From: Promethearchaeota archaeon
Lineage (GTDB): Archaea; Asgardarchaeota; Lokiarchaeia; Sigyniarchaeales; SOKP01
Assembly: GCA_019058295.1 (NCBI GenBank)
Contig: JAHPZI010000026.1
Location: 1-64,000, forward strand
Direction of reading: 5' to 3'
DNA: 64,000 nt
Below are positions 1,599 to 60,473 of this stretch, piece after piece; positions within the stretch are counted from its first letter, which is position 1, and the number at the start of each line of letters is the position of its first letter. A program made the translations under genes and the position numbers. The notes beneath the pieces are model-generated. The model saw only the letters and a program-made list of their open reading frames with translations, was not told the origin of the DNA and made no database searches.

Positions 1599-1976
1599 TT
1601 ACATTAAATTTTTTATCTGTTCGCTAACTTTTCTTAGCTCTATAAAGCATGTATCCATACGAGCATCAACATCAAGACACACACATATAATGAGCTCTTC
1701 ACCCGCTTCCATGATTGCGAAATTGCCCTCGTTGCCTTGAAGGATACAGACGTCTAAAGTTCCTGATTTCAATTCGAGGAGTACTCGTTCAGATACACTT
1801 AAAATTGTCGCCGTCATGGCTGCTAATCTAATATCTGAGATACCTTCTTCCAGTATAGCTTGTATAATAAGACCCTCGGCTGAAACTACGGCAGAACTCT
1901 TCACTCCTTCAATATTATCATGGAGTGTCTGAAGCAAAAATCTCAATTGCTCATCGCTCGTTGGTAAACACCTCAA
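1599..1976 (-). CDS. Roadblock/LC7 domain protein (start uncertain; probably ACG at 1961)
   Basis: GVKSSAVVSAEGLII...LAAMTATIL..SER...EL..G.L pattern, ~120 aa. Confidence 0.9.
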   Translation of the reverse strand: MRCLPTSDEQLRFLLQTLHDNIEGVKSSAVVSAEGLIIQAILEEGISDIRLAAMTATILSVSERVLLELKSGTLDVCILQGNEGNFAIMEAGEELIICVCLDVDARMDTCFIELRKVSEQIKNLM

Positions 1977-2010
1977 CTCTCAATTGCTCATCGCTAATTG
2001 GTAAACACCT
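1941..2010 (-). repeat. Tandem 33-bp direct repeat (period 37) covering the roadblock RBS and first codons
   Basis: 1941-1973 tctcaattgctcatcgctcgttggtaaacacct vs 1978-2010 tctcaattgctcatcgctaattggtaaacacct, 31/33 identical. Confidence 0.95.
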
Positions 2011-2218
2011 AAAGAAAATCTCTTGATATTGTTTATATTCGATCTTAAAGCAAGTTTTAAAGACTTGCTATATTATTTAATTATTTAAGAGTTCAATTAA
2101 TTATTTATAAAATAATCATTATCTAATTTAAAACTATAGATAATCATTTATATGAATATAATTATTAAAATATAGCCTTGTAAAAAAAATTATTAATTTT
2201 ATGATCGGTGAGATTTAA

Positions 2219-3454
2219 TTGAGTTTAAGATTAAAATTTGAATATTATCCAAAAATAGATAGTGCTCTACTTAAGGATGCATATAAATTCATCCAAGAGA
2301 ATAAAGAGAAATGGGATACTCCTTTCTTTACTGATACAAAATCTCATATAGACGTAGAAAAAATTCAAAATACGACTAAACATGTTATAAATAAAAATTT
2401 AAGAAATGTTATTGTTTTAGGAACAGGGGGGTCAATTCAAACTTTGTTGGCAATAAAACATTTAGCTATGAAAAAGATTTATCCTATAACGAGTTCACGA
2501 GCAGTTGAGTTAAATAAATGTTTAAATGAGACAAATCCGGAAGATTCTATTGTGATTCCTATTTCTAGAGGTGGGGAAACACTAGATATAAATTCTACTA
2601 TAGGAACTTTTCTTAAGGAGGGTTATAAATTTATTGGTCTTTCTTCAATGGGTACTATGAATGAAATATTAAAAAAAATAAACTGTCCTATTTTAGATGT
2701 TCCCGATTTGTCAGGTCGATATGCTGGTTCTATGTCCAACGTAGGAATTGTTCCTGCGTATCTCTCAGGTATTAATATTGAAGATTATATAAGGGGATTA
2801 GAAGAAGGATATACTTTATACATGAACTCTGAGAACAATATTGCATTAGAATTTTCATGTTATCTTTTTAATTTATATAAAAAAGGGTATAAAGTAGTAT
2901 TTTCTATGCCATATTCAAAGAACCTTGAAGAAAGTGTGGGATTATTTGTTCAATGTATATCAGAAAGTACAGGCAAAGATGGGAAAGGTTTGATGGGCAC
3001 ATTCCAATCTGCGCCTTTATGTCAACATTCAGTACTGGAGTATCTCTTAGGAGGCACTAAAGGTGCTACAATTCCTATTTTATGGACTATTAGAAATGAG
3101 CATCCAGATTTAACGCTAGAATCTTCTATTAACTACATTAACGGTGAAAACGCACAGAATATTGTAAATTACCAGGCAGATGCGACATTCCAAGCATTAA
3201 TCAAACAAAGCGTGCCTTCTGCTAAAATCTCAATTGATACTCCTAAAGAAATTGTCATTGGGCATTTGATCTCTTTTATCCTATCCACGATATACTATCT
3301 TTGTATCTTGTTTGGTGTGAATTGGGCAAATAATCCAAAAGTTGTTATTGGAAAGAAAATCTGCAATGAAGCTTTAAAGGATAAAGTTCCTTCTGAAGAA
3401 AGAGAAAAAATAAGAAAAAAAATAGCCGACGATATTTTTAGAAATTTTTTCTAA
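2219..3454 (+). CDS. pgi: Glucose-6-phosphate isomerase-like (double SIS domain) protein
   Basis: GTGGS, ISRGGET, SGRY, ESTGKDG, QHS motifs; TTG start after GGTG SD. Confidence 0.75.
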   Translation: MSLRLKFEYYPKIDSALLKDAYKFIQENKEKWDTPFFTDTKSHIDVEKIQNTTKHVINKNLRNVIVLGTGGSIQTLLAIKHLAMKKIYPITSSRAVELNKCLNETNPEDSIVIPISRGGETLDINSTIGTFLKEGYKFIGLSSMGTMNEILKKINCPILDVPDLSGRYAGSMSNVGIVPAYLSGINIEDYIRGLEEGYTLYMNSENNIALEFSCYLFNLYKKGYKVVFSMPYSKNLEESVGLFVQCISESTGKDGKGLMGTFQSAPLCQHSVLEYLLGGTKGATIPILWTIRNEHPDLTLESSINYINGENAQNIVNYQADATFQALIKQSVPSAKISIDTPKEIVIGHLISFILSTIYYLCILFGVNWANNPKVVIGKKICNEALKDKVPSEEREKIRKKIADDIFRNFF

Positions 3455-3488
3455 TCTTTTTTTGTTATAAAATTTAATTTTATTAGTT

Positions 3489-4928
3489 CTAATTTTGGTG
3501 GATGAAAGCAGTATACAAAACATTTACCGCTTTTTTACAATCTTTCCTTTCAATTATGAACGTTATATTCAACTCCGATGATCCTTGAGCAATTGCTCTT
3601 ACGTTTATATTATTATTACCCATTGTAGTAAAAACTTTTCCAGCAATACCAGGTGTTTGAAGCATTCCCGCACCAATTACAGCAATTAAAGAAATATCAT
3701 TATCAATTTTTATGGAAAACCACTGTTTACCAAAAAATTCAGAATTTCTTAATAAAAAGCTTACTTTCATTGAATCTTCTAAATCAATTCCAAATGTAAT
3801 ATTATTTTCCGAAGAACTTTGCGATATAAATTTAATATTTACATTATTATCACCAAGAAGTGAAAATAATTTTGATACTGTACCGTGTAAAGATATCATA
3901 GTCCCACTTTCAATTGTTACCATTGTCAGTCTTTCGATTGAGGTAATGGCTTTAATTTTTTTATCGTCCTTAACAATCTCTTTAGTAATAGTCGTAAATT
4001 CGTTTGTTTCTGGATTATTAAAATCTCTAATTTCTGATGGAATATCTCTTTTTTCGTTAACATCAAGACATACAGGATGTAGTACTTTTGAGCCAAAAAA
4101 AGCTAATTCCTTTGCTTCAATGTAAGATATTTGCCTTAATAGATCTGTTTTATCTGAAATTTTAGGATCAGCATTTAAAAATCCTTTAACATCTTTCCAG
4201 TAAATGACCTTAGTGTTATATTTTGGCATTAAACAAAAAGCCAAAATTGCTGCAGTTAAATCCGTTCCTCCACGACCTAAAGTTGTAATTTTTTTATTTT
4301 TAGTTGACCCATAATACCCTGTCACACAAATTAGATCAATTAAATCTGAATCTAATATTGGAACTATTTTTTTCTCAACTAATTCTTGACACTCGTCTAA
4401 GATTGGGAGGGCATTACCAAAGTTTTCGTCAGTAATGATAATCTCATCAGATGATATAAATTGAGATTTAAGATCTTTATCAATTGAATTAAAATATTGA
4501 GAGAAAATAAAAGTGCTTAGTCTTTCTCCATAAGATACTATTATATCTTGAATATCCATACTCGGTCTCAATAAACGAACAATTCGTCCTAATTGACTTA
4601 ATTCTTCAATATTATCGTCTAAGAAATCCAATGTATCATTATATTCAAGTTTAGTTTCATCAATGATCTCATCGATTATTTTTTTATGAATATTGTAAAT
4701 ATTTTCTATGATAAAATCACATTCAGTAGCTTCTTCACACGATTTTGTATAAAAATCTATAAGTTTATCGGTTATCCCTTTTATAGCGGATGTTACTATT
4801 ATTAATTTTTGATTCAAGTATTTTTTTATAATTTGAGTTGTTTTTTCAAATGACTTAGTATCTTGTAAGCACGAACCACCAAATTTCATTACAATAAGGT
4901 CTTTTTTTTTAATCGTCAATTTAAACAC
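3489..4928 (-). CDS. lysC: Aspartate kinase with two ACT domains
   Basis: KFGGS, SYGERLS, TLGRGGTDLTA, DVKGFLNADP, FGSKVLHP, ISQSSSE, AQGSSE; real start likely TTG a few codons in. Confidence 0.95.
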   Translation of the reverse strand: MFKLTIKKKDLIVMKFGGSCLQDTKSFEKTTQIIKKYLNQKLIIVTSAIKGITDKLIDFYTKSCEEATECDFIIENIYNIHKKIIDEIIDETKLEYNDTLDFLDDNIEELSQLGRIVRLLRPSMDIQDIIVSYGERLSTFIFSQYFNSIDKDLKSQFISSDEIIITDENFGNALPILDECQELVEKKIVPILDSDLIDLICVTGYYGSTKNKKITTLGRGGTDLTAAILAFCLMPKYNTKVIYWKDVKGFLNADPKISDKTDLLRQISYIEAKELAFFGSKVLHPVCLDVNEKRDIPSEIRDFNNPETNEFTTITKEIVKDDKKIKAITSIERLTMVTIESGTMISLHGTVSKLFSLLGDNNVNIKFISQSSSENNITFGIDLEDSMKVSFLLRNSEFFGKQWFSIKIDNDISLIAVIGAGMLQTPGIAGKVFTTMGNNNINVRAIAQGSSELNITFIIERKDCKKAVNVLYTAFIHQN

Positions 4929-5070
4929 CAGTTAAGTATCTTATAATAATAATCAATAAGAAACAAAGTAAATAGATTTTTTTATAAATCATTAAAAAAG
5001 AATGGAAAAAAAAAAGAATTTAGAAATTAATTCTTTTTTATAATAAATAGGAAAAAAAAAAATATTTTCG

Positions 5071-5862
5071 ATGAAGTTAAGTATAATTATTCCTTGCTAT
5101 AATGAAGAATCTACTCTTAAAAAATTATTAGAGCATCTATTTAAGATTCAATTTCCTATAGAAAGAGAGATTATTGTTATTGATGATGGATCTGTAAGAA
5201 ATCATAAAGATTTTATTAAAGAAGAGATAAATTCAAATAAAATTAAATTCATAAGGTTACCTCAAAATCAAGGAAAAGGATTTGCAATTAGAGTTGGATT
5301 AAAATTCGCTTCTGGTGATGTTTTTATAAATCAGGATGCTGATTTTGAATATATTCCTTCCGATATACCTAAGCTATTAAATCCAATATTAAAAAATAAA
5401 GCTAATGTAGTTTATGGCACAAGATTTGCTACAAGACCAAAATTTATGTCTAAGTCCCATTATTTAGCGAATATAGTTCTAACAAAAATAGCCAATTTCA
5501 TATATCATACTAATTTAACAGATATGGAAACAGGGTACAAATTATTTACTAAGAAAGTCTTAAGTACAATTAAACTTAACGCTCGACAATTTGAATTTGA
5601 CCCAGAAATTACATCTAAAATAATTTTAAGTGGCTTTAAAATTCATGAAATACCGATTCAATATAAATATCGTGATTTTAATGACTCTAAAATCAATTGG
5701 CTTGATGGAGTTGAGTGTTTATTTATTCTTCTTCAACAAAGATTTTGTCCAAAATCAAATTTTTATCAATTTATATATAAAATCTTTAAATATCACTTTA
5801 AAAAAATCATTCTTAAATTAACAAAATTTATAGCTAAATTTGTTTATATGCGTCGAATTTAA
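5071..5862 (+). CDS. GT2 glycosyltransferase (polyprenol-phosphate glycosyltransferase, DPM1-like)
   Basis: IIIPCYNEE, IDDGS, NQGKG, QDADFEY, VYGTRF, TDMETGYK. Confidence 0.92.
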   Translation: MKLSIIIPCYNEESTLKKLLEHLFKIQFPIEREIIVIDDGSVRNHKDFIKEEINSNKIKFIRLPQNQGKGFAIRVGLKFASGDVFINQDADFEYIPSDIPKLLNPILKNKANVVYGTRFATRPKFMSKSHYLANIVLTKIANFIYHTNLTDMETGYKLFTKKVLSTIKLNARQFEFDPEITSKIILSGFKIHEIPIQYKYRDFNDSKINWLDGVECLFILLQQRFCPKSNFYQFIYKIFKYHFKKIILKLTKFIAKFVYMRRI

Positions 5863-5863
5863 T

Positions 5864-7240
5864 TCATTTTAAACTATCAATAAATCTATTCAAAAGAGCC
5901 CAAAAATGCTTAAGTGATTGAATTTCTTTAAGAATTCCAATAATAATTTTAGGTCTAAGATAGAACTCAAGATAGGCTCTTCTTTGAATATTTTTCATCA
6001 TCTTTCGAGTCATACCATCTGGGACATATCCCACATCATGCACAAAAAAGTGGTCATAGTTGATTTTTTTCATTCCCTTATCCATTAATTCCTTATAAAG
6101 CTCGGATCCAGGCAACGGCATAAAATTATTAAATTGAGCTCTATTAATGTTTACTAATTTTGATAATCCAATAGTTTGAAGCATTTCATATTTAGTTTCT
6201 CCAGGTATTCCAAACATAAAAAAGCCTGTAGTTTTTATATTGATATTATTAAAAATTTTCATTTTTTCTATAATTTTCTTAATTGAAAGATGTTTTTTTG
6301 TAATATTATGTATACGCTGAGAGCCAAATTCAAGGCCTAATGCCAAAGAATGGCACCCTGATCTCTCCATAAGTTTTAACCCATCTTCATCTAGGGTATC
6401 AATCCTCACGCCTGAAGGACAACTCCATGTGATATTCATCTTTAATTTTATTAGAGTTTCACAAAATTCCGTTAAAAGTTTCTTGAATAAAGTGAAGTTT
6501 TCGTCTTCTATTAAAAAATCTCTTACTCCATAATTTTTTTTCAAAAACTTCATCTCCTTAATCACATTTTCTATAGATCTTTTTCTAATTCGACGTGTGG
6601 TAACTGCTTTACCAGCACAAAAAGTACATTCCATTGGACAACCTCTTGTTATAATTATCGGAGCTGTGGGGAAGCTTTTGAAGAATCCACCATGGGGCAT
6701 TGGGGGGTAATTTCTTGGATCCATTAAATCCCAAGCTGGAAATGGAATAATATCGAGATCTTCAACTATTTCTATTGGATTAATTATTATTTTGTTTCCT
6801 TTCCGCCATATTAGATTTGGTACTTCTTGGAAATTTGGATTATTTGATTGAAGCTGAGACAAGAGCTCAGGAAAAGCAATCTCTGCCTCACATATTAAAG
6901 CAAAATCCGCTCTTGGAAAATCTTTTAATATTTCTTCATGAACTCCTGAGGGGTGATAACCACCAAGAACTATAATCGTATCCGGTTGAAATTTTCTTAT
7001 GATCTTTATATGCTTTCTTGTGGGAGTTACATCAAAGGTAAACATCTGAATGCCAATTAGATCAAAATCATTATTTTTAATGTAATTTTGAAAATCACCA
7101 AATGTGAAATTTTTTTGAAGACAATGCAGTATTGTAACATCATGTCCAGATTCTCTTAAAACAGATGCATTATAACCAATGCCGAGACTTGGCATTATAA
7201 CATAACTTCTGTTTATTGGCATCATCAGCAAGATTTTCAT
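5864..7240 (-). CDS. Cobalamin-binding radical SAM protein (class B methyltransferase-like)
   Basis: N-terminal B12-binding region (PSLGIGY, LGGYHPS), TRGCPMECTFC, EDENF, GIPGET, PLPGSEL. Confidence 0.92.
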   Translation of the reverse strand: MKILLMMPINRSYVIMPSLGIGYNASVLRESGHDVTILHCLQKNFTFGDFQNYIKNNDFDLIGIQMFTFDVTPTRKHIKIIRKFQPDTIIVLGGYHPSGVHEEILKDFPRADFALICEAEIAFPELLSQLQSNNPNFQEVPNLIWRKGNKIIINPIEIVEDLDIIPFPAWDLMDPRNYPPMPHGGFFKSFPTAPIIITRGCPMECTFCAGKAVTTRRIRKRSIENVIKEMKFLKKNYGVRDFLIEDENFTLFKKLLTEFCETLIKLKMNITWSCPSGVRIDTLDEDGLKLMERSGCHSLALGLEFGSQRIHNITKKHLSIKKIIEKMKIFNNINIKTTGFFMFGIPGETKYEMLQTIGLSKLVNINRAQFNNFMPLPGSELYKELMDKGMKKINYDHFFVHDVGYVPDGMTRKMMKNIQRRAYLEFYLRPKIIIGILKEIQSLKHFWALLNRFIDSLK

Positions 7241-7461
7241 TTTAGTGATCCATTGGCAATTTTATTTCCTAGTAAAATATGGTAATCTTGTTTAAATTTA
7301 AAAATATAGGTTTTTAAATTAAGTTTCTGTGAATATTTGATTTTCTATTAAAAAACAGATTAAAATCAATTGGTAAAATTCAATAAGTATAAATATTAAA
7401 TATATTTTGATATTTCAACTTAGAAATTATTGCAATATAAATAATAAAGAACCAAGAGAAA

Positions 7462-8460
7462 ATGAAAGAAATAACAAAGAGAATTTTGATCGGAATCTCT
7501 ACAATAATGTTAATTATTGTCATGATTCTCTATGTTGATATAAAGGAAATTCTAAATAATTTAAATAAAATTTCATTATTAGGTATATTCCTATTTATTC
7601 TGATTTATACAACCACATTTATTTTACGTTCATTTAAACTAAAACAGGTATATCACGGCTTAAATCTTAAATCTTCACTCTTAATATTATATTGTTCCTA
7701 TGGTGTTGGATTTGCCATTAATGAATTAACACCAGGTAAATTTGGGGACCTAGCAAGAATTGAATTTATACAACAAAAGGAAAAAGATATATCATTATCT
7801 AAGAGTCTTTGTGGTGTATCAATCGAGAGATTTATAGATTTACTAGTACTGTTTTCATTTATTAGTTTAGTTACTATTTATTTATATTTAAATAAATTCA
7901 AGGGAACTTCCAATCTAAACTTACATATTTATTTAGGTATTGGTGCACTTATCCTATGTGGAGCCATAGTGATGTTAATTTTACTTTTTTTCACATCTGA
8001 TTGGATATTAAATATTATTGGTAAGATTTCTTCAAAGTTTAAGCATAGATTGGAGCTTTTTCTTGAGAATTTTTTGAACGGAGTAAATGAATTTAGAAAA
8101 AATAAGAAAAGTTTAATTAAAGTTATTATCTTGAGTTTTCCAACATGGTTTTTAGATACACTTACTCTCGTGCTTCTTTTTTATTTAATTGGATATGAAA
8201 TTCATATATTCATAATTATAATGGCTCAAATAATAGTATTCTTTACAAAAGCATTTCCAATTACCCCCGGTGGATGGATTATTTCGGAAAATGTAGGTTC
8301 CTTATTAATTTTTTTATTTTATCCATCAATTCCTTATAATATTATTTTATCTATTTTTATTTTGGATCATTTAATAAGATCAGCCTATATATTTGTTTAT
8401 GGAGTATTTTCTTCTGTTGGTTTTAATTTTAAATTTGAAAAAATGACAAAACAGATTTAA
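7462..8460 (+). CDS. Flippase-like membrane protein (lysylphosphatidylglycerol synthase TM / UPF0104)
   Basis: N.LTPGKFGDLAR, SIERFID, PITPGG motifs; multiple TM helices. Confidence 0.88.
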   Translation: MKEITKRILIGISTIMLIIVMILYVDIKEILNNLNKISLLGIFLFILIYTTTFILRSFKLKQVYHGLNLKSSLLILYCSYGVGFAINELTPGKFGDLARIEFIQQKEKDISLSKSLCGVSIERFIDLLVLFSFISLVTIYLYLNKFKGTSNLNLHIYLGIGALILCGAIVMLILLFFTSDWILNIIGKISSKFKHRLELFLENFLNGVNEFRKNKKSLIKVIILSFPTWFLDTLTLVLLFYLIGYEIHIFIIIMAQIIVFFTKAFPITPGGWIISENVGSLLIFLFYPSIPYNIILSIFILDHLIRSAYIFVYGVFSSVGFNFKFEKMTKQI

Positions 8461-8518
8461 AGGAACCAAAACAGAATATATAGGATGGATTAAAGAGATT
8501 TTAGGACTTTAATTCATA

Positions 8519-8635
8519 TTAAAACAGGAGAATAATTACTAAAATTGATAATAATATTCCAATTAAGGAAAAAAATAATGCCATAAGAAGATTATCTACT
8601 TTTATCTCCCTTTTTATCAATCTTAAATTTAAATT
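8519..8635 (-). pseudogene. 3' remnant of a third GT-C paralogue
   Basis: Translates NLNLRLIKREIKVDNLLMALFFSLIGILLSILVIILLF*, aligning with the C-terminus KLNLGFIKREIIVNNHMLTFYLSFIGVFYSILIIIFYL* of 9971-11020. Confidence 0.8.
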
Positions 8636-8731
8636 GCTTAAGAGATTTATGTACTTATTTTAATAAGTTTAAGTTATTGATTACAATGAAAAAAACTCTG
8701 AATTAGTATAATAAAAAATATTTTCATTAAA

Positions 8732-9793
8732 TTAATAGATTGGAGTTTTAAAAATAAATATAATTATAATATATGATAAAAATACTCCAATAAATGACAA
8801 ATAAAAGGTCAGCAGATGATTATTTACTATTATTTTTTTTTTCATAAATTTTAAATTCAATTTAAACCTAAAAAATTCTCTCTCCTTTAAAATTCCGTAA
8901 AATATTATGGATTGAAACCATCGTAAATATGGCCAGCTGAAAAATAAATAAGTACCGAGCGCAACCATTGAAATTATGATTATTTCAAAAATATCAGAAT
9001 TTTTTAATCTAAATAAAAGAAATAAAATAAATATACATATAAAAGGAATTAATCTTATATATATAGGCACATAAGACCCTCTCTCATTCCACTCTGCTAA
9101 TGATTGATAATAGTAAGGTAAGTAAAAAAGGGGTAAAACTATAAAAATGAAAATTAATAACGGGATAATGGTAAGAGAAATTTTTAAATCTTTCCAGTCT
9201 TTTTCATATAGAAATTTAATAATAAGAAATCCTATTGCTGGTATGGTATAAAACTTAATACACATTGATAAACCTATAAAGATATAAAATAGATATCTCG
9301 CATAGATCTCTTTTTTTGGGTAAAATATCAATGCTAATAAGAAAAAGAAGAAGAAGAAAGAATCTGTAATATGATATCCGCAATTTTCTAAGCTAAAGGA
9401 ATTATTTAGAAACCAAAACGGATTTAGTAAAAATAAAGCAAATGCATATTTTGGATTATTAATGTTAAAACTTTTTATAACAAAATAGAACATAAAACAT
9501 GTCAATAAGTCCCAAAAAAAAGCCCAAAAAACAAAAACTTCAAACCTTCCAAAAGATAAAAACACAAATACCAAAATAAAAATTTGAGTCAGTATCGGAT
9601 AACCTCCCCATTGCTTAGAATAATTTAATTGAACATCTCCCCAAGATTTTTGAGGATTTAACATATGGAAATAATAATAATAAAATAACATAATTATTCT
9701 TGCCATAATACCTAAAAAAATAAAGATTAAAGCCTTTTTGGCAAAAATTTTATCCAGTATTCTTTTTTCTTCTATAATAACATCATTTTCCAT
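8732..9793 (-). CDS. Polytopic membrane protein, probable GT-C glycosyltransferase (GT87/PIG-M-like), paralogue 1
   Basis: WGD in first loop, WDLLT, LLNP, IKFYT; ~10 TM segments; next to GT2 and flippase. Confidence 0.65.
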   Translation of the reverse strand: MENDVIIEEKRILDKIFAKKALIFIFLGIMARIIMLFYYYYFHMLNPQKSWGDVQLNYSKQWGGYPILTQIFILVFVFLSFGRFEVFVFWAFFWDLLTCFMFYFVIKSFNINNPKYAFALFLLNPFWFLNNSFSLENCGYHITDSFFFFFFLLALIFYPKKEIYARYLFYIFIGLSMCIKFYTIPAIGFLIIKFLYEKDWKDLKISLTIIPLLIFIFIVLPLFYLPYYYQSLAEWNERGSYVPIYIRLIPFICIFILFLLFRLKNSDIFEIIIISMVALGTYLFFSWPYLRWFQSIIFYGILKEREFFRFKLNLKFMKKKIIVNNHLLTFYLSFIGVFLSYIIIIFIFKTPIY

Positions 9794-9970
9794 AAATATT
9801 CACCATAAAGAACATCTTATAAAGTTTTTTTTATTGAGAATCTATCCTAAATTTAATTTACTAAAGAAAATTCTGTATTTATTTTAACAAATTTAATTTA
9901 TTAAATCTAATGAAAAGAATTCTGAATTAGAAGTATAAAAAAAATCTCATTTAATTAATAGATTGAAGTT

Positions 9971-11020
9971 TTATAAATAAAAAATAATAATTAAAATTGA
10001 GTAAAAGACTCCAATAAATGACAAGTAAAAAGTCAACATATGATTATTTACTATTATTTCTCTCTTTATAAATCCTAAATTCAATTTAAACCTAAAAAAT
10101 TCTCTCTCCTTTAAAATTCCGTAAAATATTATAGATTGAAACCATCTTAAAAATGGCCAGCTGAAAAATAGATAAGTGCCGAATGCAACCATTGAAATTA
10201 TTAATACTTCAAATATATCAGATTTTTCTAATCTATATACAATAAATAAAGTGAATATACATATAAAAGGAAGTGCTCTTATAAATCTTGGCACATAAGA
10301 ACCTTTTAAATTCCATATTGCTAATGCTACATAATGATAAGGTAAGTAAAAAAGTGGTAAAAATATCAATACTATCACTAGTGGGATGATGAGAATTCCC
10401 ATTATTTTTAATTCTCCCCAGTTTTTTTCATATAGAAATTTAATAAATAGAAATCCTATTGCTGGGATAGTGTAGTATTTTATACACATTGATAATCCTA
10501 AAAATATGTAAAACAAATATCTAGCATAACGCTCTTTTCTTGGATAATAGATGAGTGCCAGGAAAAAAAAGAACAAAAAGAATGCATCTGTAATGTGATA
10601 TCCACAACCCTCTAAGCTAAAAGTATTGATAAAAAAGAATAATGGATTGATTAAAAAAAAACCAAAAGCATATTCTTTATTTTTGATATTAAAACTTTTT
10701 ATAACAAAATAGAACATCAAACATGTCAACAAATCCCAAAAATAGGCCCATAAAACAAAAATTTCAAACCTCCCAAAAGATAAAAACACAAATACTACAA
10801 TAAAAATTTGCGTCAGTAAAGGATAATGCTCTCCGTATTCATAATAATAATTTCTATGAGCATCTCCCCAAGAAATATAAGGATTTAACAAATGAATATA
10901 ATAATAATAATAAAGCACCACTATTCTTGCTGTAATACCTAGAAAAATAAAGATTGAACCCTTTATGGTATAAATTTTATCCAGACTTTTTTTTTCTTCT
11001 ATACCAACCTCATTTTCCAT
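9971..11020 (-). CDS. Polytopic membrane protein, probable GT-C glycosyltransferase, paralogue 2
   Basis: Colinear and highly similar to 8732-9793 over its whole length. Confidence 0.65.
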   Translation of the reverse strand: MENEVGIEEKKSLDKIYTIKGSIFIFLGITARIVVLYYYYYIHLLNPYISWGDAHRNYYYEYGEHYPLLTQIFIVVFVFLSFGRFEIFVLWAYFWDLLTCLMFYFVIKSFNIKNKEYAFGFFLINPLFFFINTFSLEGCGYHITDAFFLFFFFLALIYYPRKERYARYLFYIFLGLSMCIKYYTIPAIGFLFIKFLYEKNWGELKIMGILIIPLVIVLIFLPLFYLPYHYVALAIWNLKGSYVPRFIRALPFICIFTLFIVYRLEKSDIFEVLIISMVAFGTYLFFSWPFLRWFQSIIFYGILKEREFFRFKLNLGFIKREIIVNNHMLTFYLSFIGVFYSILIIIFYL

Positions 11021-12408: not shown

Positions 12409-12501
12409 GCACTGGAAAACAAAACGATGGAGATACTTAATGATATTTTCGTCAAAATTATTATTTAACGATTTTCAATAGTTTTATCCATTGTAAAGGT
12501 T

Positions 12502-36910: not shown

Positions 36911-37092
36911 TTTTTAGCCCTTTTTAATATATAAAAATTTTTTATTTTACATTGAGGTTAATAAATTTCCGGATTATCGATATATTTAAAATCTTTATTA
37001 CTTATTAATCTTTATTTGCATTATAAACCTATATATTTGAGTGATTTCTATTCATTAATATAATAAATAAACTATGGTCGAAGTGGTAAAAA

Positions 37093-37848
37093 ATTCTTGT
37101 ATGGGTAATATTATTTAGTATATTGGGGAGCATTGGAGCGATCTCCGCCGCTGCGGCTTTTGTGTTTTTAGCTGATAAAGCTCAAAAATACCTTGTTACT
37201 ATTTTAATTGCGTATGCTACAGGAACTCTACTAACTGCTGCTTTATATGGGCTGATACCAGAAGCTATAGAAGGTGCAGGTGGTGAACCACATATGATAA
37301 TGTTGCTTGTTTTAGGAAGTATTCTTTTTTTCTTTTTTTTGGAGAAAATAATCATTTGGCGTAATTGTTCAGATACCACATGCGATGTCCACGCAGCAGC
37401 GGGACCTATTGTACTTGTTGGAGATGCGTTTCATAATTTAACCGATGGAGTAGTAATTGCAGCTGCATTCTTAACAGATTTTACGATTGGCATTGCTGTG
37501 GGTTTTGCTATAATAGCACACGAAATTCCTCAAGAAACAGGTGATTTCGGAATTCTTCTTAATGGGGGTTATTCAAAGAAAAAGTCCTATTTATATAATG
37601 CGATATCTAGTACAACCACAATACCAGCAGCAATTATAAGTTATTATATTTTAGGGTCAGTAACACTTATAATACCTTATATCTTGGCGATTTCAGCAGC
37701 AAGCTTTCTTTATATAGCTTTATCAGATTTAACACCAGAACTCCATCAAAAACTAGGTTTAAAACACAGTGTACGACAATTGATTTTTATTTTAGCAGGA
37801 ATTATTACAATGTTGGTCATTTTTACATTTGCAATACATAATCATTAA
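37093..37848 (+). CDS. ZIP family metal (Zn) transporter; reading frame extends upstream to ATT 37093
   Basis: GDAFHNLTDG, AHEIPQE.GDF, FLYIALSDL.PELH; in-frame ILVWVILFSI completes TM1. Confidence 0.93.
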   Translation: MLVWVILFSILGSIGAISAAAAFVFLADKAQKYLVTILIAYATGTLLTAALYGLIPEAIEGAGGEPHMIMLLVLGSILFFFFLEKIIIWRNCSDTTCDVHAAAGPIVLVGDAFHNLTDGVVIAAAFLTDFTIGIAVGFAIIAHEIPQETGDFGILLNGGYSKKKSYLYNAISSTTTIPAAIISYYILGSVTLIIPYILAISAASFLYIALSDLTPELHQKLGLKHSVRQLIFILAGIITMLVIFTFAIHNH

Positions 37849-51196: not shown

Positions 51197-51273
51197 GAAA
51201 AGATTAATTTTTAGCTACTTTATAATTAATGATTAAATAGAAAAATTAATTATTGATACAGTTGTAAAAAGGT

Positions 51274-53181: not shown

Positions 53182-53183
53182 TA

Positions 53184-53912
53184 ATGGACTTCCCGAAAAT
53201 AAATTTACATACTCATTCAGTTTTTTCCGATGGAAAAAATAGTATTAAACAGATGGTAACCGTAGCACTTAAATTAAAAATAAACTATCTTGCTATTACA
53301 GACCATTTTTCAGATTCTTGGAAATGTAAAATAATACCTACTCTAAATACAGCTGAAAAAATTGAGGACTACTTAATTAAAATTGAAAATTGCCAGAGCT
53401 ATTTAAAAACCAACAATAAAAATCTAAGACTTTTTAAGGGAATTGAAATAGATCTAGGAAGCTCAGAAAAGGTAATAAAGAAATTTATCAGACCTGAACA
53501 TTTTGATATAATTTTATTTGAGTATTTAGAGACTCCTGAGGGCATGGCTTATGTTAGAAATATAATTGAATACTGGAAAAACTTAAAACCTGTTAATAAT
53601 AAGTTTCCAATATTAGGATTAGCTCATTTTGATCCTTCTAATTTTATCTATCAAGGTTTAGATTCATTAATATATTTTCTCAAAGAGTTTAACATTTATT
53701 ATGAATTTAACTCAAGTTATTATGAATGCTTCTCTAGAAAAAATGAATTATTTTTTAAGAAATTAAAAGAACATAAGATATATGTAGCGATAGGAAGCGA
53801 TGCCCATAATTTAAATGGGTTGGATTTTATTGAAGAACCATTAAAAATGATTGAAATTTATAATCTCGAGAATAATTTTAAACTTTTTTTAGAAAGATTG
53901 AAAAATATTTAA
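53184..53912 (+). CDS. PHP domain phosphoesterase
   Basis: HTHS.FSDG, ITDH, GIEID, LAH, GSDAH. Confidence 0.92.
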   Translation: MDFPKINLHTHSVFSDGKNSIKQMVTVALKLKINYLAITDHFSDSWKCKIIPTLNTAEKIEDYLIKIENCQSYLKTNNKNLRLFKGIEIDLGSSEKVIKKFIRPEHFDIILFEYLETPEGMAYVRNIIEYWKNLKPVNNKFPILGLAHFDPSNFIYQGLDSLIYFLKEFNIYYEFNSSYYECFSRKNELFFKKLKEHKIYVAIGSDAHNLNGLDFIEEPLKMIEIYNLENNFKLFLERLKNI

Positions 53913-54044
53913 TAAAGGGAAAATTGGCAATTTAATCTGAAAATATAAAATTAAAATTACTAAAATATTGATGTAATTTTTTCAACCTGAAATTTACAAA
54001 ATAAAACAACTTTCCTTTTATTTATTGTAATCTTAGCTACCATT

Positions 54045-54626
54045 TTATACATTAATCCATCTATGTCTAAATCTTCGTTTGGTGTCAGGTTTTTCAATAA
54101 AAGGTTTATCAAGAAATTCTGTTACTATTTGACCAAGTTTCTTGCATGTTGCCATTGATCCAAAGAAAAAATTTCTTTTTCTTGAATTTTGGAATATAAA
54201 AGCTAAAGCATAACCACCACCACCATCATAGCTAGAAGAAACTTCTTTAATTTCATGAAATTCAATTATTTCCGTTGTTTTAAATCGACGAGATTTGTTA
54301 TTAAACATTACTTTTTTTGATTGATTATCAAAAAGAATTTCTCTTTTTCGCTTATAACCGTATATAAATAAACCTAATGGAACAAATGTTATTAGAGAAA
54401 AAAATGGAAAAATTAATAATAAATAAGATAACTCAAAAAACATTGCAATCCCACTTGATAGATATCCAAAAATTAAAAAGAAAATTATGAATGGAAGACC
54501 AAATAAAAAGAAGACTTTTATTGCTAATAAAATTTCATGCCAAACATCATAACTAATTATTAACTCTTTCTCAGTCTTTGAAAGTTCCCAGTAAATCTTT
54601 AACCATTCCTCCTGATTATTTTCCAC
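54045..54626 (-). CDS. Two-TM membrane protein with C-terminal soluble domain
   Basis: Two hydrophobic helices; GAGGGTG SD before GTG. Confidence 0.7.
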   Translation of the reverse strand: MENNQEEWLKIYWELSKTEKELIISYDVWHEILLAIKVFFLFGLPFIIFFLIFGYLSSGIAMFFELSYLLLIFPFFSLITFVPLGLFIYGYKRKREILFDNQSKKVMFNNKSRRFKTTEIIEFHEIKEVSSSYDGGGGYALAFIFQNSRKRNFFFGSMATCKKLGQIVTEFLDKPFIEKPDTKRRFRHRWINV

Positions 54627-54648
54627 TTTGCACCCTCAACTTATATTT

Positions 54649-55074
54649 TTATTTTGAAAATGATAAATTAACCGTTCCATTCATAACTCTTATATTATTT
54701 ATTTTTTCAACTTGATATTCACAATGTACAACTTTTCTATTATCTTCATGCTTAATATCAATAATTTTTCCATTAAATATTATTTCATCGTTAGGATAAA
54801 CTGGATTCTCAAATTTAATCGTTATACCGGATAAAGCATTTATGTTACCATCAATCCAATCAATAATCCATTTAGGAACGAAAGAAAACAAAAAATTCCC
54901 AGCTATAAGGATATCATCATAACCCAATCGATGAACATATAATTTGCTAAGATGCATAGGATTGATTTCTTTTGCTAATTTGTTGTATTGTTTATAGGTT
55001 TTTTTTTCCATTTTAACTTTGAAAGATGGAATCTCTTGTCCTATTTCTATTTCTTTTGTTATCATTATAAACAC
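54649..55074 (-). CDS. MaoC-like hot-dog dehydratase
   Basis: EINPMHLS...G...I.IAG, IKFENPVYPND. Confidence 0.85.
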   Translation of the reverse strand: MFIMITKEIEIGQEIPSFKVKMEKKTYKQYNKLAKEINPMHLSKLYVHRLGYDDILIAGNFLFSFVPKWIIDWIDGNINALSGITIKFENPVYPNDEIIFNGKIIDIKHEDNRKVVHCEYQVEKINNIRVMNGTVNLSFSK

Positions 55075-55089
55075 TTCCTATTTGACTTT

Positions 55090-55581
55090 CTATAATTTGA
55101 AAAAACAATCATGATTATCTACAGCGTAAATAATATTGTTTTCATCTAAAACAGATAATTTAAAAACAATATTATAATAGACGCCTTTTTTACCAGATTT
55201 TTTAATCGGCTCTGATAATTCCGTTTTGATTTTATATTTTTTATTCATTGTCATTGGTTTAAAGAATTCAATTTCTGAACCTACATGTATAAATGCCTTA
55301 ACTAATTTTGAGAATAAATGTGGACCACCTTTAGTAAGAATAAGTTGAACTAACGGATTCGTTAAGCTCGTCATATAACTTGGGGGGATAACTTTACCCT
55401 CAAATCCTGCTTTATTTGCCGCTATATTGTCAAGATAAATTAAATTATCATCACCAATCAAATCACAGAATTTTGTTATCTCTTTATCATCTGGTTTAAA
55501 TTCGTAAAATCCTATTTCTTTTACATTTTTTTTTAACTGTCTGTTAAGTTCTTCTACTTTCGATATGTTATTTTCTGCCAT
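55090..55581 (-). CDS. MaoC/FAS1-like dehydratase N-terminal partner
   Basis: I.KFC..IGD.N.IY.D..AA..AG......PP, IHVGSEIEF.KP. Confidence 0.85.
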   Translation of the reverse strand: MAENNISKVEELNRQLKKNVKEIGFYEFKPDDKEITKFCDLIGDDNLIYLDNIAANKAGFEGKVIPPSYMTSLTNPLVQLILTKGGPHLFSKLVKAFIHVGSEIEFFKPMTMNKKYKIKTELSEPIKKSGKKGVYYNIVFKLSVLDENNIIYAVDNHDCFFKL

Positions 55582-55664
55582 AGTAATAGTATTCTTGGAA
55601 ATTTTTAATGATATATATGTTTTTTTTAAAATCTTAGTCCTCAGAAAAAAAAGTGGAATATGAA

Positions 55665-56201
55665 TTATAGAATAATAATAACTTGATAATAATCAAGAAT
55701 TATTAAACCCAAAAATCCTAATTCTATTAAGAGCCAGATATTCCGTTTTAAATTCCTTACTACTTTTAATCCCTTACCACTATAACTGATTATATTGTAA
55801 ATAAACATCAATATCCAAGCTAATAAAAGAATTACAACGGGAAGGATCAATGCCATAATATGTCCATCAGTAAAATCTATTAAATACTTATAACCAAGAA
55901 TAACAAATCCAATTATAACAAACGTAAATCCAAGCCCAAATGTATATTCCGCAAAGTTTATAAATCTCTTTATTTTCTTTTCAGATATTTCTTCAAATTG
56001 AGATTCATAATGCGCTCTTGAATTTGCGGTTACTGAATTAATAAATAAAATAAAAGCCATCATTAACAAAAAAGTTACAGTTATTATCCCATGTTTAGGT
56101 TTGAATTGCCAAATTAAAGCAAGTATCGTTAAAAGAGCGCCAATCATAGTTGTGGAGAGAACAATCCAGTCTTTTACATTTACTTCATCTTCTTTTGCCA
56201 T
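55665..56201 (-). CDS. Five-TM membrane protein of unknown function
   Basis: Hydrophobic helices; GAGGT SD before ATG. Confidence 0.75.
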   Translation of the reverse strand: MAKEDEVNVKDWIVLSTTMIGALLTILALIWQFKPKHGIITVTFLLMMAFILFINSVTANSRAHYESQFEEISEKKIKRFINFAEYTFGLGFTFVIIGFVILGYKYLIDFTDGHIMALILPVVILLLAWILMFIYNIISYSGKGLKVVRNLKRNIWLLIELGFLGLIILDYYQVIIIL

Positions 56202-56308
56202 TTTTTTACCTCAAAATTATTACTTAATTAATTAATTGCTTACAAAAACTTTAGATTTATTACTTATAAAAGTTTTGCGATGTGTTATAATCGTTATCAA
56301 CTATAAAA

Positions 56309-57112
56309 TTGAAATATTCATTATCTTTTTATAATCGCATTTTTTTAGTTTATATTATGGAATTAGAAGAAAAAATTGAATTAGCTGCAAAATGGATAGC
56401 TGAGTCAAAGAACTTAGTAATTTTTACAGGTGCGGGAATTTCGACAGGTAGTGGATTACCGGATTATAGAGGTCCAGATGGCGTATGGACTAGACGAGAT
56501 AAAGGCCTCCCTCCCCCAAAATCACCACCGTGGGATCAAGTAAAACCTAATCAGGGACATTTCATCATTCTAGAATTATTAAAAATGGGAAAACTAGATT
56601 TTGTTATTTCTCAAAACGTTGATGGACTACATGCGAAATCAGGAATTCCCTTTGACAAACTTGCTGAGCTCCACGGGAATATGTACTTCATGAAATGCCT
56701 TGAATGTGGCAAAAAGATGACATTCGAAGATGCAGGTTGGGATAAAAATAAATGGGGTAAAGGCTATAGAACTAATCGTGTTCATAATGGTCAACCAACA
56801 TGCCCAAACTGTGGAGGAAGGCTAATTTCAAGCATAGTTAATTTTGGGGATCCTTTACCGGAAGACGAATTATACGAATCAATAAAAAGATCTCAGCAAT
56901 CTGATGTATTTTTTGTGATAGGTTCCTCCTTAGTTGTTACCCCAGCAGCAAACATGCCAGAGTACGCAAGAAGAAGTGGTGCAAAATTAATTATTTTAAA
57001 TATGGGAGATACTCCTTATGATAGCGTGGTGGACCTAAGATTCTTTAATAAAATAGAAGACATACTTCCTCCAATCTTTGAAAAAGTAAAAAATATAATT
57101 AATTCAAGTTAA
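56309..57112 (+). CDS. cobB: Sir2 family NAD-dependent protein deacylase (likely start ATG 56357)
   Basis: TGAGIST.SG.PDYRG, SQNVDGLH, ELHG, CxxC...CxxC, FGD.LP, GSSL.V.PA. Confidence 0.95.
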   Translation: MKYSLSFYNRIFLVYIMELEEKIELAAKWIAESKNLVIFTGAGISTGSGLPDYRGPDGVWTRRDKGLPPPKSPPWDQVKPNQGHFIILELLKMGKLDFVISQNVDGLHAKSGIPFDKLAELHGNMYFMKCLECGKKMTFEDAGWDKNKWGKGYRTNRVHNGQPTCPNCGGRLISSIVNFGDPLPEDELYESIKRSQQSDVFFVIGSSLVVTPAANMPEYARRSGAKLIILNMGDTPYDSVVDLRFFNKIEDILPPIFEKVKNIINSS

Positions 57113-57114
57113 AT

Positions 57115-58782
57115 TTATTTCAATTTAGCAAAAATTTTTTTGCTTCTATCAACTTCTTTGAGAATTCTTCTTCCTTCTTTATTAGATAATGATAAATTAA
57201 TTTCACTATTTCTGCTTAAGGATCCCGTAAAAATTTCCTTCTGGTCGGCGAAAACTTTAATATTTTGGCTAGCAAACCTTGGAGCTGCTTTTAATATAAC
57301 TTTATCTTTTTTTATTATTACATCAAGCTCAATTCTTTCCTTATTTGAACTTACTCGTTTAAAAGTGGATGATTTTTTAAAATCAAGTGAAGAAGCTTTT
57401 GAAAGTTTTGATTTTTGTGGATTAATAGGATTTATGACGACATCTTGCCCAAAAGAATAAATTTCGAAAGCAAGTTGTCCTGAATTGAAATCTCTAACTT
57501 CTACAACAGGTCTGGCGAGATCTTTATCCCTAAAACCATGAGGTACTTTTACCGTCATTTTTATTATTAAAACTGTCGAAATGTCGCCCCCCTCTATAAA
57601 TATAATTGTATCTATAATAGAAGGAAGCATTCCAAGTTCGATGCGGCCAATAAATCTTTGGATTGCATCTATCGCGGATGAAGAGTGTACAACGCCAACC
57701 ATACCAACACCAGATAACCGAAAATCTGAATATATTTCAAAATCTTTTGTGGTTCTTACTTCATCAAAAATAGTGAAATCAGGTCTTACTAATAAAAGAA
57801 TATCTGCTGAATTTTCAAGATTACCCTCTAATTTAGTATATTGAGTAATTTCTGGTTTAACTTGTAAATCTCTCACACTTTCTAAAGTTTTAACTACTTT
57901 ATTCTGACCTAAATAATAATTAGCTAGTGCTGCAGAAAAAGTCGATTTACCTGCTCCTGGAGATCCGCAAACTAATATTCCCTCTGCGGTTTGCAATCTC
58001 TTTTGTAGTCTGGCATCAATTGAATAATCTGACAGTGTTAAGCTAACTAATGGATGAGTAGCTGTTATTTCAACATCAGTAGAAAATGGTGGACGTGTTA
58101 TTACTATTCTAAATTCCCTTAATTGTGCGACTACTGCGCCTTCTCTTTCTATTTCTATAAACGAATGTTCGTCTTCTCTTACATTTTCAATTATCTCAAG
58201 GGCAATATCTTCTATTAGTTTATTGCCAATAGGCTCAGAATCAATTTTTACTAAGTGCCAATCACCAGGAGAACCTTTCTTTGCATAAGGTGGTAAATTT
58301 CGTTTAAGATGAACGCTCATGGTTGATTCATCAAAATAATCGAATATCTTAAGTTTAAGAGGTTCTTCTTTAAGGGGTGGTTTTTTTTCCCATGCAAACA
58401 ACACTTCTAATCCTTCAAAAATACCAATATCTCCTTGAATTCTATCAGCCGTAATTAATACTGCATTGTTTTCTAAGGCTGATTTTCGGATTAGCGCATC
58501 AAGCTCCCCGCCCGGACTCATTTTTATTTCTTCCCTCGTTGGACGGCTTCCAATGATTTTCAAATTAATTTTTTTCTCATTATGAAGCTCACGCAATTTT
58601 TTTAATACATTGAGACCATAAAATCCTATCTCCTTCTGAATATTTGTACGATATTCAACTTCTGCAATTACGATATTAGAAATAATGATTTCTGGATGAT
58701 CTCCCAATTCTCCGTCTTCGATTAGACTTAGAATCTGACCATTGAATATGACTGATGTATCGCAAGCAAATTTATCTGGCAT
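57115..58782 (-). CDS. PIN-domain ATPase (archaeal PINA)
   Basis: PIN (DTSVI, V.AE.E, D, TAD), GSPGAGKSTF, ESVRDL, RPD.TIFDEVR, GVGMVGVVH. Confidence 0.92.
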   Translation of the reverse strand: MPDKFACDTSVIFNGQILSLIEDGELGDHPEIIISNIVIAEVEYRTNIQKEIGFYGLNVLKKLRELHNEKKINLKIIGSRPTREEIKMSPGGELDALIRKSALENNAVLITADRIQGDIGIFEGLEVLFAWEKKPPLKEEPLKLKIFDYFDESTMSVHLKRNLPPYAKKGSPGDWHLVKIDSEPIGNKLIEDIALEIIENVREDEHSFIEIEREGAVVAQLREFRIVITRPPFSTDVEITATHPLVSLTLSDYSIDARLQKRLQTAEGILVCGSPGAGKSTFSAALANYYLGQNKVVKTLESVRDLQVKPEITQYTKLEGNLENSADILLLVRPDFTIFDEVRTTKDFEIYSDFRLSGVGMVGVVHSSSAIDAIQRFIGRIELGMLPSIIDTIIFIEGGDISTVLIIKMTVKVPHGFRDKDLARPVVEVRDFNSGQLAFEIYSFGQDVVINPINPQKSKLSKASSLDFKKSSTFKRVSSNKERIELDVIIKKDKVILKAAPRFASQNIKVFADQKEIFTGSLSRNSEINLSLSNKEGRRILKEVDRSKKIFAKLK

Positions 58783-59377
58783 TAAAATCAGAATCTATAT
58801 CCTTATTCATAATTTGAAATTTCTTAACATTATAATAAATAGGCTTACTTAATCTATCCACTGTTGCAACAATTAGTTCCTTGCGAGAACTCAGAGCAAC
58901 TTTAGACATTTTATCTAAATCTCTTAATTCAATTGGACTTCCCTCAAAAACGGGAAAAATCAAATATTTTGCAGAATCTTTTTCATAATCCGCACCTCGA
59001 TTATAAACTCGAAATTCAATTCCATCGCCATATCCCGTACGAACAATATACCCTCTCTTTCTTAAGTCCATGTAAATAATGTACTTATGCCATAATCTAT
59101 CGTCAAATTGAGTAAAATAAGTTAATAAATCTTCAAAATCGTGTTGCTTTTTAGTTTTATCATTATCTTCCCATAATAAAATTCTATTTCTTTCGCAAAG
59201 AAGTAGCGTTTCGACTGGAGCTAATATTAAAATTTCTTTTTCTTCTGTTGTTTTTTCAACATTACCTATGTATGAATTTTTATAAAATTCTTCAATTCCT
59301 TCAAGATCCGAAATTACAACTTTATCTTGTTCTATAGCACCTTCTATTTGAATCTTCTCATCAGATTTTTCTGTCAT
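58772..59377 (-). CDS. endA: tRNA-intron endonuclease subunit, possibly non-catalytic
   Basis: L...E.L.L, Y.DLRKRGYIVRTG, FRVY, RKELIVA.VD. Confidence 0.88.
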   Translation of the reverse strand: MTEKSDEKIQIEGAIEQDKVVISDLEGIEEFYKNSYIGNVEKTTEEKEILILAPVETLLLCERNRILLWEDNDKTKKQHDFEDLLTYFTQFDDRLWHKYIIYMDLRKRGYIVRTGYGDGIEFRVYNRGADYEKDSAKYLIFPVFEGSPIELRDLDKMSKVALSSRKELIVATVDRLSKPIYYNVKKFQIMNKDIDSDFNAR

Positions 59378-59474
59378 AACCTAATTTATAATTATATTTT
59401 CTAATTAATGAATTTAACCATTCTAAGGCTTTTTAAGAAAATTAAATTAGTGTAGAATATTATGGAATTTAATT

Positions 59475-60044
59475 ATGAAGGATTTACTCGAAACCATTTT
59501 AAATAAATTAAATGGTGCTTCAAAAATCATTTTCATTGGAGTTGGAGAAGTGAAATTAAACGATGATGGAGTAGGACCATATATTATAAGTGAACTTTTA
59601 TCATACTCTAATGAAAACTTCCTTTTTATTAATGCTAGTACCGATCCAATGGATAGAATTGATGAAATCGTAGATTTTAATCCTTCACATATAGTAGTTA
59701 TAGACACTTGTACATATAATGGTCCACCTGGAACTGTAGCGATATTAGAACGAGAAAATATGTGTGATTATGTACCTATTTCAACTCATACTATACCGCT
59801 CTCTGTTGTAATTGATTTATTAGTAGAACGATTGCCAAATGCGGAGATTTTCATGATTGGATTAGTTCCAGAAGATTTAAAGGGTTTTACCCAATTAACC
59901 CTCTATAAAGAGAACGAATTATCCCTTGATGATTACTCTGAGAATATCGATTTGCCTTTTTTTAATTTTAATTTATCAGACACTATTAAAGATGTAGCAG
60001 ATAAACTAATAGATATAATAAAAAAAATTACTGAAAAAATATAA
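59475..60044 (+). CDS. Hydrogenase maturation protease (HycI-like)
   Basis: GVG....DDGVG, VVID, PGTV, STHTIP. Confidence 0.88.
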   Translation: MKDLLETILNKLNGASKIIFIGVGEVKLNDDGVGPYIISELLSYSNENFLFINASTDPMDRIDEIVDFNPSHIVVIDTCTYNGPPGTVAILERENMCDYVPISTHTIPLSVVIDLLVERLPNAEIFMIGLVPEDLKGFTQLTLYKENELSLDDYSENIDLPFFNFNLSDTIKDVADKLIDIIKKITEKI

Positions 60045-60059
60045 ATTATTTTTTAGACT

Positions 60060-60314
60060 TTAATAACCGCCTGCCTGCGTAGCCATAACAGTTATTACAT
60101 CTTTTTTAGGATGGATACCTATTTTAGCAAATTTTAATTGATCAGGTAAAACCTTCCCTTTAAAAATAAATTGAATAGCTAAAATCGGATTTAGCTTATA
60201 TTCTCTCTGAACTGATTTTTTAATATCAGCAATATTTTGATTAGGATCTACCTCAATTAATTTAATAGCCTGGTCTGGCGGGACTCCAGTAAGCCTAAAT
60301 CTGTATTGTGTAAT
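60060..60314 (-). CDS. Unannotated 84-aa ubiquitin/SUMO-like protein with C-terminal GG-Y; apparent ATT start
   Basis: (I/M)TQYRFRLTGVPPDQAIKLIEVDPNQNIADIKKSVQREYKLNPILAIQFIFKGKVLPDQLKFAKIGIHPKKDVITVMATQAGGY*; SD-like AGGAAGTG 7 nt upstream. Confidence 0.88.
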   Translation of the reverse strand: MTQYRFRLTGVPPDQAIKLIEVDPNQNIADIKKSVQREYKLNPILAIQFIFKGKVLPDQLKFAKIGIHPKKDVITVMATQAGGY

Positions 60315-60473
60315 TTTTAATCACTTCCTTTTTTAAATTCGGAGATAAAATATATTATTATATATATAAAGTTAATAAAAATAATTAAGTATTTTAGTCT
60401 AAAAGGTTATACTTGAGTTTAAAGCGACTTTTTTTTAGGATTCAATTAGATATTCAAGAAGGTGTTAGATATT

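Follow-up and report, generated by a model that had tools for sequence, protein, structure and literature searches.

Proposed AUU, AUA and AUC start codons behind Shine-Dalgarno motifs in a Lokiarchaeia-type family of Asgard archaea

In bacteria, AUU-type starts are rare, gene-specific regulatory exceptions. In mitochondria, Shine-Dalgarno (SD) sequences are absent and a modified tRNA-Met also reads AUA internally. For archaea, a review of translation initiation gives AUG, GUG and UUG as the sole start codons (PMC7531240). The factor aIF1/eIF1 destabilises initiation complexes on non-AUG codons (PMC6237735), and eIF1 in eukaryotes is described as autoregulated via a poor start context (Ivanov et al., 2010, as cited in PMC6237735). 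In Asgard archaea, a "likely rare ATT start codon" was noted for the AtubA tubulin gene in a metagenome-assembled genome (MAG) of the Kariarchaeaceae (Heimdallarchaeia; PMC13394414); the literature searched contained this remark only and no systematic report of AUH initiation (AUA, AUU or AUC) in Asgard archaea. The present work concerns three genes in a 64,000-nt stretch of DNA (the window) from a Promethearchaeota archaeon, which encode a ubiquitin-like protein (Ubl), a ZIP-family metal transporter and a Roadblock/LC7 protein. The comparison of orthologues gives good support to initiation at ATT in the Ubl and ZIP genes, and we regard it as very likely.

The window (C26:1-64000 of genome G000) belongs to a 3.2-Mb MAG of 30.7% GC in 30 contigs that is 79% complete, and the DNA runs containing its sequence are sediment metagenomes. 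The comparison genomes (G001 and so on) are relatives; the families referred to are f1, which includes G000, f2 and f4. Throughout, ATH stands for ATA, ATT or ATC, and a canonical start is ATG, GTG or TTG.

Start codons of the ubiquitin-like and ZIP genes

Among the 52 long open reading frames (ORFs) of the window, just three have no canonical start at the 5' edge, namely Ubl, ZIP and roadblock; the roadblock frame was kept among them though its second codon is TTG. The initial annotation of the window had reported an SD motif, a 7-nt spacer and a non-canonical codon in front of each. These three strings match the window exactly, and the SD and start layouts that it gave for comparison genes at 9793, 34512 and 14049 read as described. 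The 16S rRNA of relatives was found to end in ...GGATCACCTCCT, and the motifs before these genes are therefore true SD complements. In Ubl, AGGAAGTG and the next two bases (AT) are complementary to this 3' end at nine of ten positions. Complementarity, the 7-nt spacing and a genome-wide peak of ATG at 5-9 nt (described below) all agree with SD-led initiation.

The Ubl protein matches the ubiquitin family PF00240 in Pfam (3.9e-9; 36.6 bits vs a cut-off of 25.4) and ends in ...QAGG plus one residue, and so combines a beta-grasp match with the GG of ubiquitin-family proteins. The final residue after GG varies (Y, F, I, E or S) and some relatives end at GG; the GG-plus-one-residue end (60060-60074, minus strand) has the layout of a precursor trimmed to bare Gly-Gly. 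No E1 or E2 gene adjoins Ubl within the window, where its neighbours are a HycI-like protease and a tRNA-splicing endonuclease. The open frame of Ubl has 86 codons, and its earliest ATG, GTG or TTG is codon 78. When ATT is taken as residue 1, the sequence x-T-Q-Y-R-F-R-L-T-G falls, by eye, in register with ubiquitin M1-G10, the register being anchored on a PDB alignment that begins at Ubl residue 20 (ubiquitin L15).

The Ubl orthologues were compared at 18 loci in species-level genomes of the same order, G000 included. The homologous start codon is ATT in eight of them (G000, G007, G002, G006, G009, G022, G001 and G023), ATA in one (G004) and ATG in the other nine, and an SD motif occupies the equivalent position in all 18. 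Relative to G000, the ATT- and ATA-bearing orthologues show 16-44 synonymous and 0-7 non-synonymous codon differences. So few non-synonymous differences point to strong purifying selection, and the gene must therefore, on this reading, be translated. Public proteins of the family start variously, with MTQY..., MIKITQY... or MWKKITQY..., cut at V11, or extended by up to ~28 residues. The closest public representative is 96% identical to the Ubl of G000; representatives stand for 90% clusters, so the protein of G000 itself may be called. The idea of a hidden proteome thus holds in part, as the public Ubl N-termini are a mixture of cut, extended and MIK-prefixed forms.

The ZIP protein matches the Zip family PF02535 (3.5e-30, Pfam). 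An in-frame TAA lies two codons upstream of its ATT. Canonical codons begin only with codon 11 of the open frame, a TTG that encodes the 10th residue counted from ATT and falls within the first hydrophobic helix. At 16 ZIP loci, G000's own included, the homologous start codon is ATT in six (G000, G005, G007, G002, G022 and G006), ATA in G010, ATC in G020 and ATG in seven; in G003 it is ACG, with an in-frame ATT immediately before. A 62% identical paralogue in G000 likewise has ATT at the equivalent position; in-frame TAA TAA precedes it, and no canonical codon follows these stops. In both Ubl and ZIP, a non-canonical codon thus occupies the start position of the orthologues, in-frame stops are found immediately upstream, and no canonical alternative precedes the conserved N-terminus. 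An out-of-frame ATG mini-ORF overlapping the ZIP start is kept only in the four closest relatives, with no equivalent path in the others; it could modulate ZIP translation.

A start at canonical codons downstream, or decay of both genes into pseudogenes, would dispense with ATT. For ZIP, the in-frame TTG nine codons downstream of ATT in G000 could serve in this way. This codon is TTA in most relatives, however, and a start there would truncate the first transmembrane helix, whereas W4 and the subsequent residues before the TTG are conserved among relatives through synonymous changes. In Ubl, a downstream start would leave eight residues, at odds with the excess of synonymous differences across the gene. 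Such downstream starts or decay have very little probability.

The initial annotation had offered a different alternative for the two genes, a +1 frameshift or a homopolymer error at AAA-AAT-T. In this account, programmed frameshifting, transcriptional slippage or the error would join the reading frame to an upstream GTG (Ubl) or ATG (ZIP). In G000, the GTG lies 10 nt and the ATG, which opens the mini-ORF, 19 nt upstream, each in the frame that a +1 shift would join. The GTG, which lies within the Ubl SD, has the same +1 relation in six ATT-bearing Ubl loci. The 7-nt SD spacing by itself yields this relation, however, and at three of the nine ATT or ATA loci the GTG is in frame; this pattern, judged from the alignments, fits a 6- or 7-nt SD spacing and not a genuine start codon. 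The ATG-bearing orthologues, moreover, have an SD where the supposed GTG start would sit. The ZIP genes of G005 and G007 read TAA TAA ATT, with no A-run and with stops that block the frameshift path. In G022 the frame of the nearest upstream ATG of ZIP meets TGA within two codons, and G010 would require a -1 rather than a +1 shift. No shift site or slippery motif is conserved among the Ubl or ZIP orthologues, and frame relation and sequence differ among them, unlike in +1 frameshifts of the prfB or antizyme type. The same frame and ATT occur in at least six independently assembled genomes, some without the A-run, which speaks against a sequencing or assembly error. The orthologues and independent assemblies thus refute this alternative, which we consider extremely improbable.

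ATH codons and the initiation machinery in G000 and its relatives

Each SD-like motif preceding an ORF of at least 100 codons in G000 was scanned. An in-frame stop was required no more than 20 codons upstream, with no earlier canonical codon, and non-canonical sites were further required to have no canonical codon within the next 10 codons. ATG was found to peak 5-9 nt past the GTG of the SD. At this spacing there are 234 canonical sites (181 ATG, 40 TTG and 13 GTG), and TTG starts, at ~17% of them, are as common as first noticed in the window. ATH accounts for 60 of the 147 non-canonical in-frame codons at 5-9 nt (ATA 27, ATT 26, ATC 7) vs 28 of 220 at flanking spacings (Fisher p=1e-9). The genome-wide tally of codons after SD motifs thus agrees with recurrent non-AUG initiation, in that ATA, ATT and ATC are enriched at SD spacing. 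The ~40 ATH sites above chance make up roughly 15% of SD-led sites (20% raw). Candidates among the ATH sites include uS12, HisA, IscU, CopA, flavodoxin, TFB, an ABC ATPase and a small GTPase, and many of the translations show, by our reading, family-typical N-termini.

The same kind of site was found in samples of other genomes. There were eight ATH against 28 canonical sites in 400 kb of G001, of the same genus, and three against 11 in 198 kb of G016, of another genus in the same family. Three of the eight sites in G001 are orthologous to sites in G000, with an identical start codon. In family f2, the ATH and canonical sites number 3 and 53 (G032, 800 kb), 1 and 34 (G030, 400 kb) and 5 and 31 (G038, 400 kb). 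In these small samples the trait looks concentrated in family f1, though not restricted to it. Among the SD-selected sites, SD strength did not differ between ATH and ATG (mean -8.67 vs -8.46 kcal/mol, p=0.46), and nothing suggests that ATH is offset by a stronger SD. The initial annotation had proposed start selection that is relaxed or regulated. Since any of ATG, ATT, ATA and ATC may replace another between close relatives, the relaxed form fits better and gene-specific regulation less well.

How would ATH codons be read? G005 and G007, the closest relatives, and many other genomes carry the canonical initiator anticodon stem-loop GGGCTCATAACCC. In a search of 41 genomes for an initiator-like anticodon stem with an altered anticodon, only CAU versions were initiator-like; hits with TAT, GAT or AAT in the initiator stem pattern were not tRNAs where checked with ARAGORN. 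Recognition of AUH by a dedicated or modified tRNA, either an initiator modified at C34 or a tRNA from a 27-gene array in G000 that is also found in G005, would be an alternative. The A1-U72 pair in the tRNA-Met of this array speaks for it, yet that tRNA is without the three G:C pairs of initiators, and no real tRNA combining an initiator-type GGG/CCC anticodon stem with a non-CAU anticodon was found. We regard a dedicated or modified tRNA as unlikely. Most simply, the SD would position the codon and ordinary Met-tRNAi would then tolerate a mismatch at the third base. The array itself, outside the window, packs its 27 genes into ~3 kb, among them Met(CAU) with A1:U72, Ile(UAU) and Ile(GAU). 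It has ~44% GC for the one gene read and is conserved in the close relative G005; few tRNAs were found in the G000 assembly beyond it.

The following explanation is considered probable as a whole. Ubl and ZIP would be intact, expressed genes in which translation begins at AUU. An SD helix ~7 nt upstream would place AUU in the P site, where the ordinary CAU initiator tRNA would read it with a third-base mismatch and yield an N-terminal Met. Within this Lokiarchaeia-type family, some 15-20% of the genes led by an SD would start at AUA, AUU or AUC, and the interchange of ATG and ATH among relatives would reflect AT-biased drift under relaxed third-base discrimination. The ACG of the roadblock gene would be a mutated ATG within a rearranged, duplicated 5' region. 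The whole case is comparative and statistical, and it is from such evidence that we infer actual initiation at ATH, the incorporation of Met and any role of aIF1.

Several observations weigh against this explanation. Chance alone is expected to give ~19 of the 60 ATH sites, and at least one site, antisense to an aspartate kinase gene in the window, is false. ACG, as in the roadblock gene, showed no peak after SD motifs in the G000 scan. In the three relatives with an in-frame GTG in the SD, this GTG could be the Ubl start. The 16S rRNA, SUI1/aIF1 and an initiator-type tRNA were not found in the 79% complete assembly of G000, so the points concerning them rest on relatives; the absence of an aIF1 match is attributed to the incomplete assembly, and none of these negatives bears on true absence.

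In these relatives, the aIF1 gene itself has an unusual start. In 16 of the 18 family-f1 genomes in which the 5' end of aIF1/SUI1 was read, no ATG, GTG or TTG occurs between the in-frame stop and the zinc knuckle. These 16 genes share AAGGTTGTGA or a similar motif 10 nt before ATT or ATC, and the TGA within AAGGTTGTGA is the in-frame stop. Two f2 genomes start aIF1 at ATA and the remaining f2 genomes at TTG, GTG or ATG; in f4 the start is ATG. A non-optimal aIF1 start is thus conserved across f1, as would be the case for a fidelity factor with a weak start of the infC or eIF1 type. In three relatives of the same genus (G001:C10, G003:C337 and G004:C112), and not in G007, aIF1 and the ZIP orthologue are no more than ~1.5 kb apart.

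Tentatively, relaxed third-base discrimination could be a family-wide state, with AUH starts at about one-sixth of SD-led genes (including those for ubiquitin, TFB, uS12 and aIF1), that aIF1 sets or stabilises by restraining its own production via an AUH start; this proposal is possible though doubtful. A simple causal link from the aIF1 start codon to genome-wide ATH usage is unsupported. The aIF1 start is ATA in G030, TTG in G032 and ATG in G038, for which the small samples gave 1/34, 3/53 and 5/31 ATH to canonical sites. As ATH starts are few in G030 despite its ATA-started aIF1, the aIF1 start codon alone does not account for the genome-wide trait.

The roadblock gene and its rearranged 5' end

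The roadblock protein matches Robl_LC7 (PF03259, 4.8e-12, Pfam). The ACG start proposed for it was correctly read as to the string and the 7-nt spacing, but two in-frame TTGs, five codons either side of the ACG, and a tandem 37-nt duplication had been overlooked. The distal copy of the duplication bears ATT (1998-1996) where the proximal copy bears the ACG, and this ATT opens a short upstream ORF whose TGA falls within codons 3-4 of the main roadblock frame, 4 nt before the downstream TTG. With two TTGs in frame, an ATT-led upstream ORF and no genome-wide enrichment of ACG, the ACG start is not established. Like Ubl and ZIP, this gene has a non-canonical codon at the homologous start position, but unlike them it has canonical codons, the TTGs, available in frame. 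Relatives have ATG at the ACG position (MS[DE]EQL), except that four same-order genomes use a TTG next to it, and G012 has ATT there plus an in-frame ATG four codons upstream.

The 5' end of the gene in G000 is sharply different from that of G005 and G007, though the protein is 96-98% identical to theirs. Some ~150 nt in G000 stand in place of ~37 nt, and S-D-E-Q-L is re-coded (AGC GAT vs TCT GAC in G005 and G007), which suggests, at the sequence level, recombination with a distant allele. The replaced stretch (1937-2100, minus strand) holds the hairpin AGCAAGT-CTTTAAA-ACTTGCT as well as the duplication, which was found only in G000 among the genomes compared. A BLAST search of the insert as a repeated element against the genome gave short chance matches only. 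In a second sample of the same study, a 407-nt contig covers 1815-2221 without gaps and with no differences listed for 1941-2012, and the duplicated arrangement is therefore real.

It is slightly better than an even call that the roadblock start is not the ACG. Translation would then begin at the upstream TTG, with a five-residue extension, or at the downstream TTG by termination-reinitiation after the ATT-led ORF. Both TTGs are in frame. The duplication recurs in the second sample, ATT behind AGGTG and 7 nt is a well-supported type of start in G000, and ACG has no peak after SD motifs. Only G000 has the downstream TTG; relatives have CTN or TTA in its place. For the ACG speaks the GAGGTG placed exactly 7 nt ahead. 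The upstream TTG overlaps this GAGGTG and has no SD of its own, and a start at the downstream TTG would lose S-D-E-Q, which is kept in G000 and conserved in relatives.

Elsewhere in the window, the RadA/Rad51 gene encodes a ~100-residue N-terminal extension before the HhH and Rad51 domains, and this extension includes a CxxC motif and a lengthy acidic region.

Table 1. Positions of the features discussed, in window coordinates unless a contig is named.
Feature	Position	Strand	Details
Ubl gene	60063..60314	minus	84 codons; proposed start ATT 60314-60312; stop codon 60062-60060; PF00240
Ubl SD motif AGGAAGTG	60322..60329	minus	Spacer ATTAAAA, 7 nt before ATT
ZIP-family metal transporter gene	37093..37848 incl. 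stop codon	plus	Proposed start ATT 37093-37095; PF02535
ZIP SD motif GAAGTG	37080..37085	plus	Spacer GTAAAAA, 7 nt before ATT
Out-of-frame ATG mini-ORF	37075..37119	plus	14 codons + stop; overlaps ZIP start
ZIP paralogue	G000:C19:63094-63831	minus	
Roadblock/LC7 gene, counted from ACG	1602..1961	minus	ACG 1961-1959; PF03259
Roadblock SD GAGGTG	1974-1969	minus	Spacer TTTACCA, 7 nt before ACG
In-frame TTGs of roadblock frame	1976-1974 (upstream) and 1946-1944 (downstream)	minus	
Tandem 37-nt copies	1937..2010	minus	SD + 7 nt + start + S-D-E-Q-L-R; distal 2010-1974, proximal 1973-1937
ATT-led upstream ORF	1951..1998	minus	15 codons; TGA 1953-1951; derived from sequence
RadA/Rad51 gene	145-1383	minus	
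27-tRNA array	G000:C22:30303-33335		Outside the window
tRNA array in G005	G005:C160		L170
f1 aIF1 example L190	G007:C174:10640-10852		
f1 aIF1 examples L209, L208, L187			

Relation to known systems

If AUH starts are as frequent as proposed, gene calling limited to ATG, GTG and TTG mis-annotates a sizeable share of Asgard proteins and, where AUH is used, would miss the ubiquitin gene of G000 altogether. Wrong N-termini distort inventories of eukaryotic-signature proteins, structure predictions and expression constructs. Several questions are raised. How do the archaeal 30S subunit, aIF1 and aIF2 tolerate third-base mismatches? Does aIF1, like IF3 and eIF1, use the weak start of its own gene to tune start stringency? 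If the self-limitation proposed for aIF1 is true, an eIF1-like stringency rheostat would already be present in the archaeal relatives of eukaryotes.

The closest bacterial parallels are the AUU starts of infC and pcnB in E. coli, together with the ATT, ATC and ATA listed in NCBI table 11, where likewise a near-cognate codon with a third-base change, positioned by an SD, starts a normal gene. The gene of a fidelity factor itself has a near-cognate start in both settings, infC in bacteria and aIF1 in the relatives studied here. Unlike in bacteria, ATH makes up ~15-20% of SD-led start sites, spread over housekeeping genes with no relation to one another, and the initiation factors of this archaeon are of the eukaryotic type. 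By analogy with eukaryotic eIF1, the weak ATT or ATC start of f1 aIF1 would make its synthesis self-limiting; unlike for eIF1, the link to relaxation is not simple, in view of the ATA-started aIF1 of G030 with few ATH starts (1 vs 34). The AUN starts of animal mitochondria also form a third-base-relaxed set in an AT-rich genome, whereas this archaeon has the standard code and SD positioning. In AtubA, annotation had truncated an Asgard eukaryotic-signature protein, and an ATT start plausibly spaced from a ribosome-binding site restored it. That case is a single-gene remark in another Asgard class, whereas the present one draws on a series of orthologues and a genome-wide statistic. The starts described here are best seen as a variant, at the level of a clade, of near-cognate initiation as already known.

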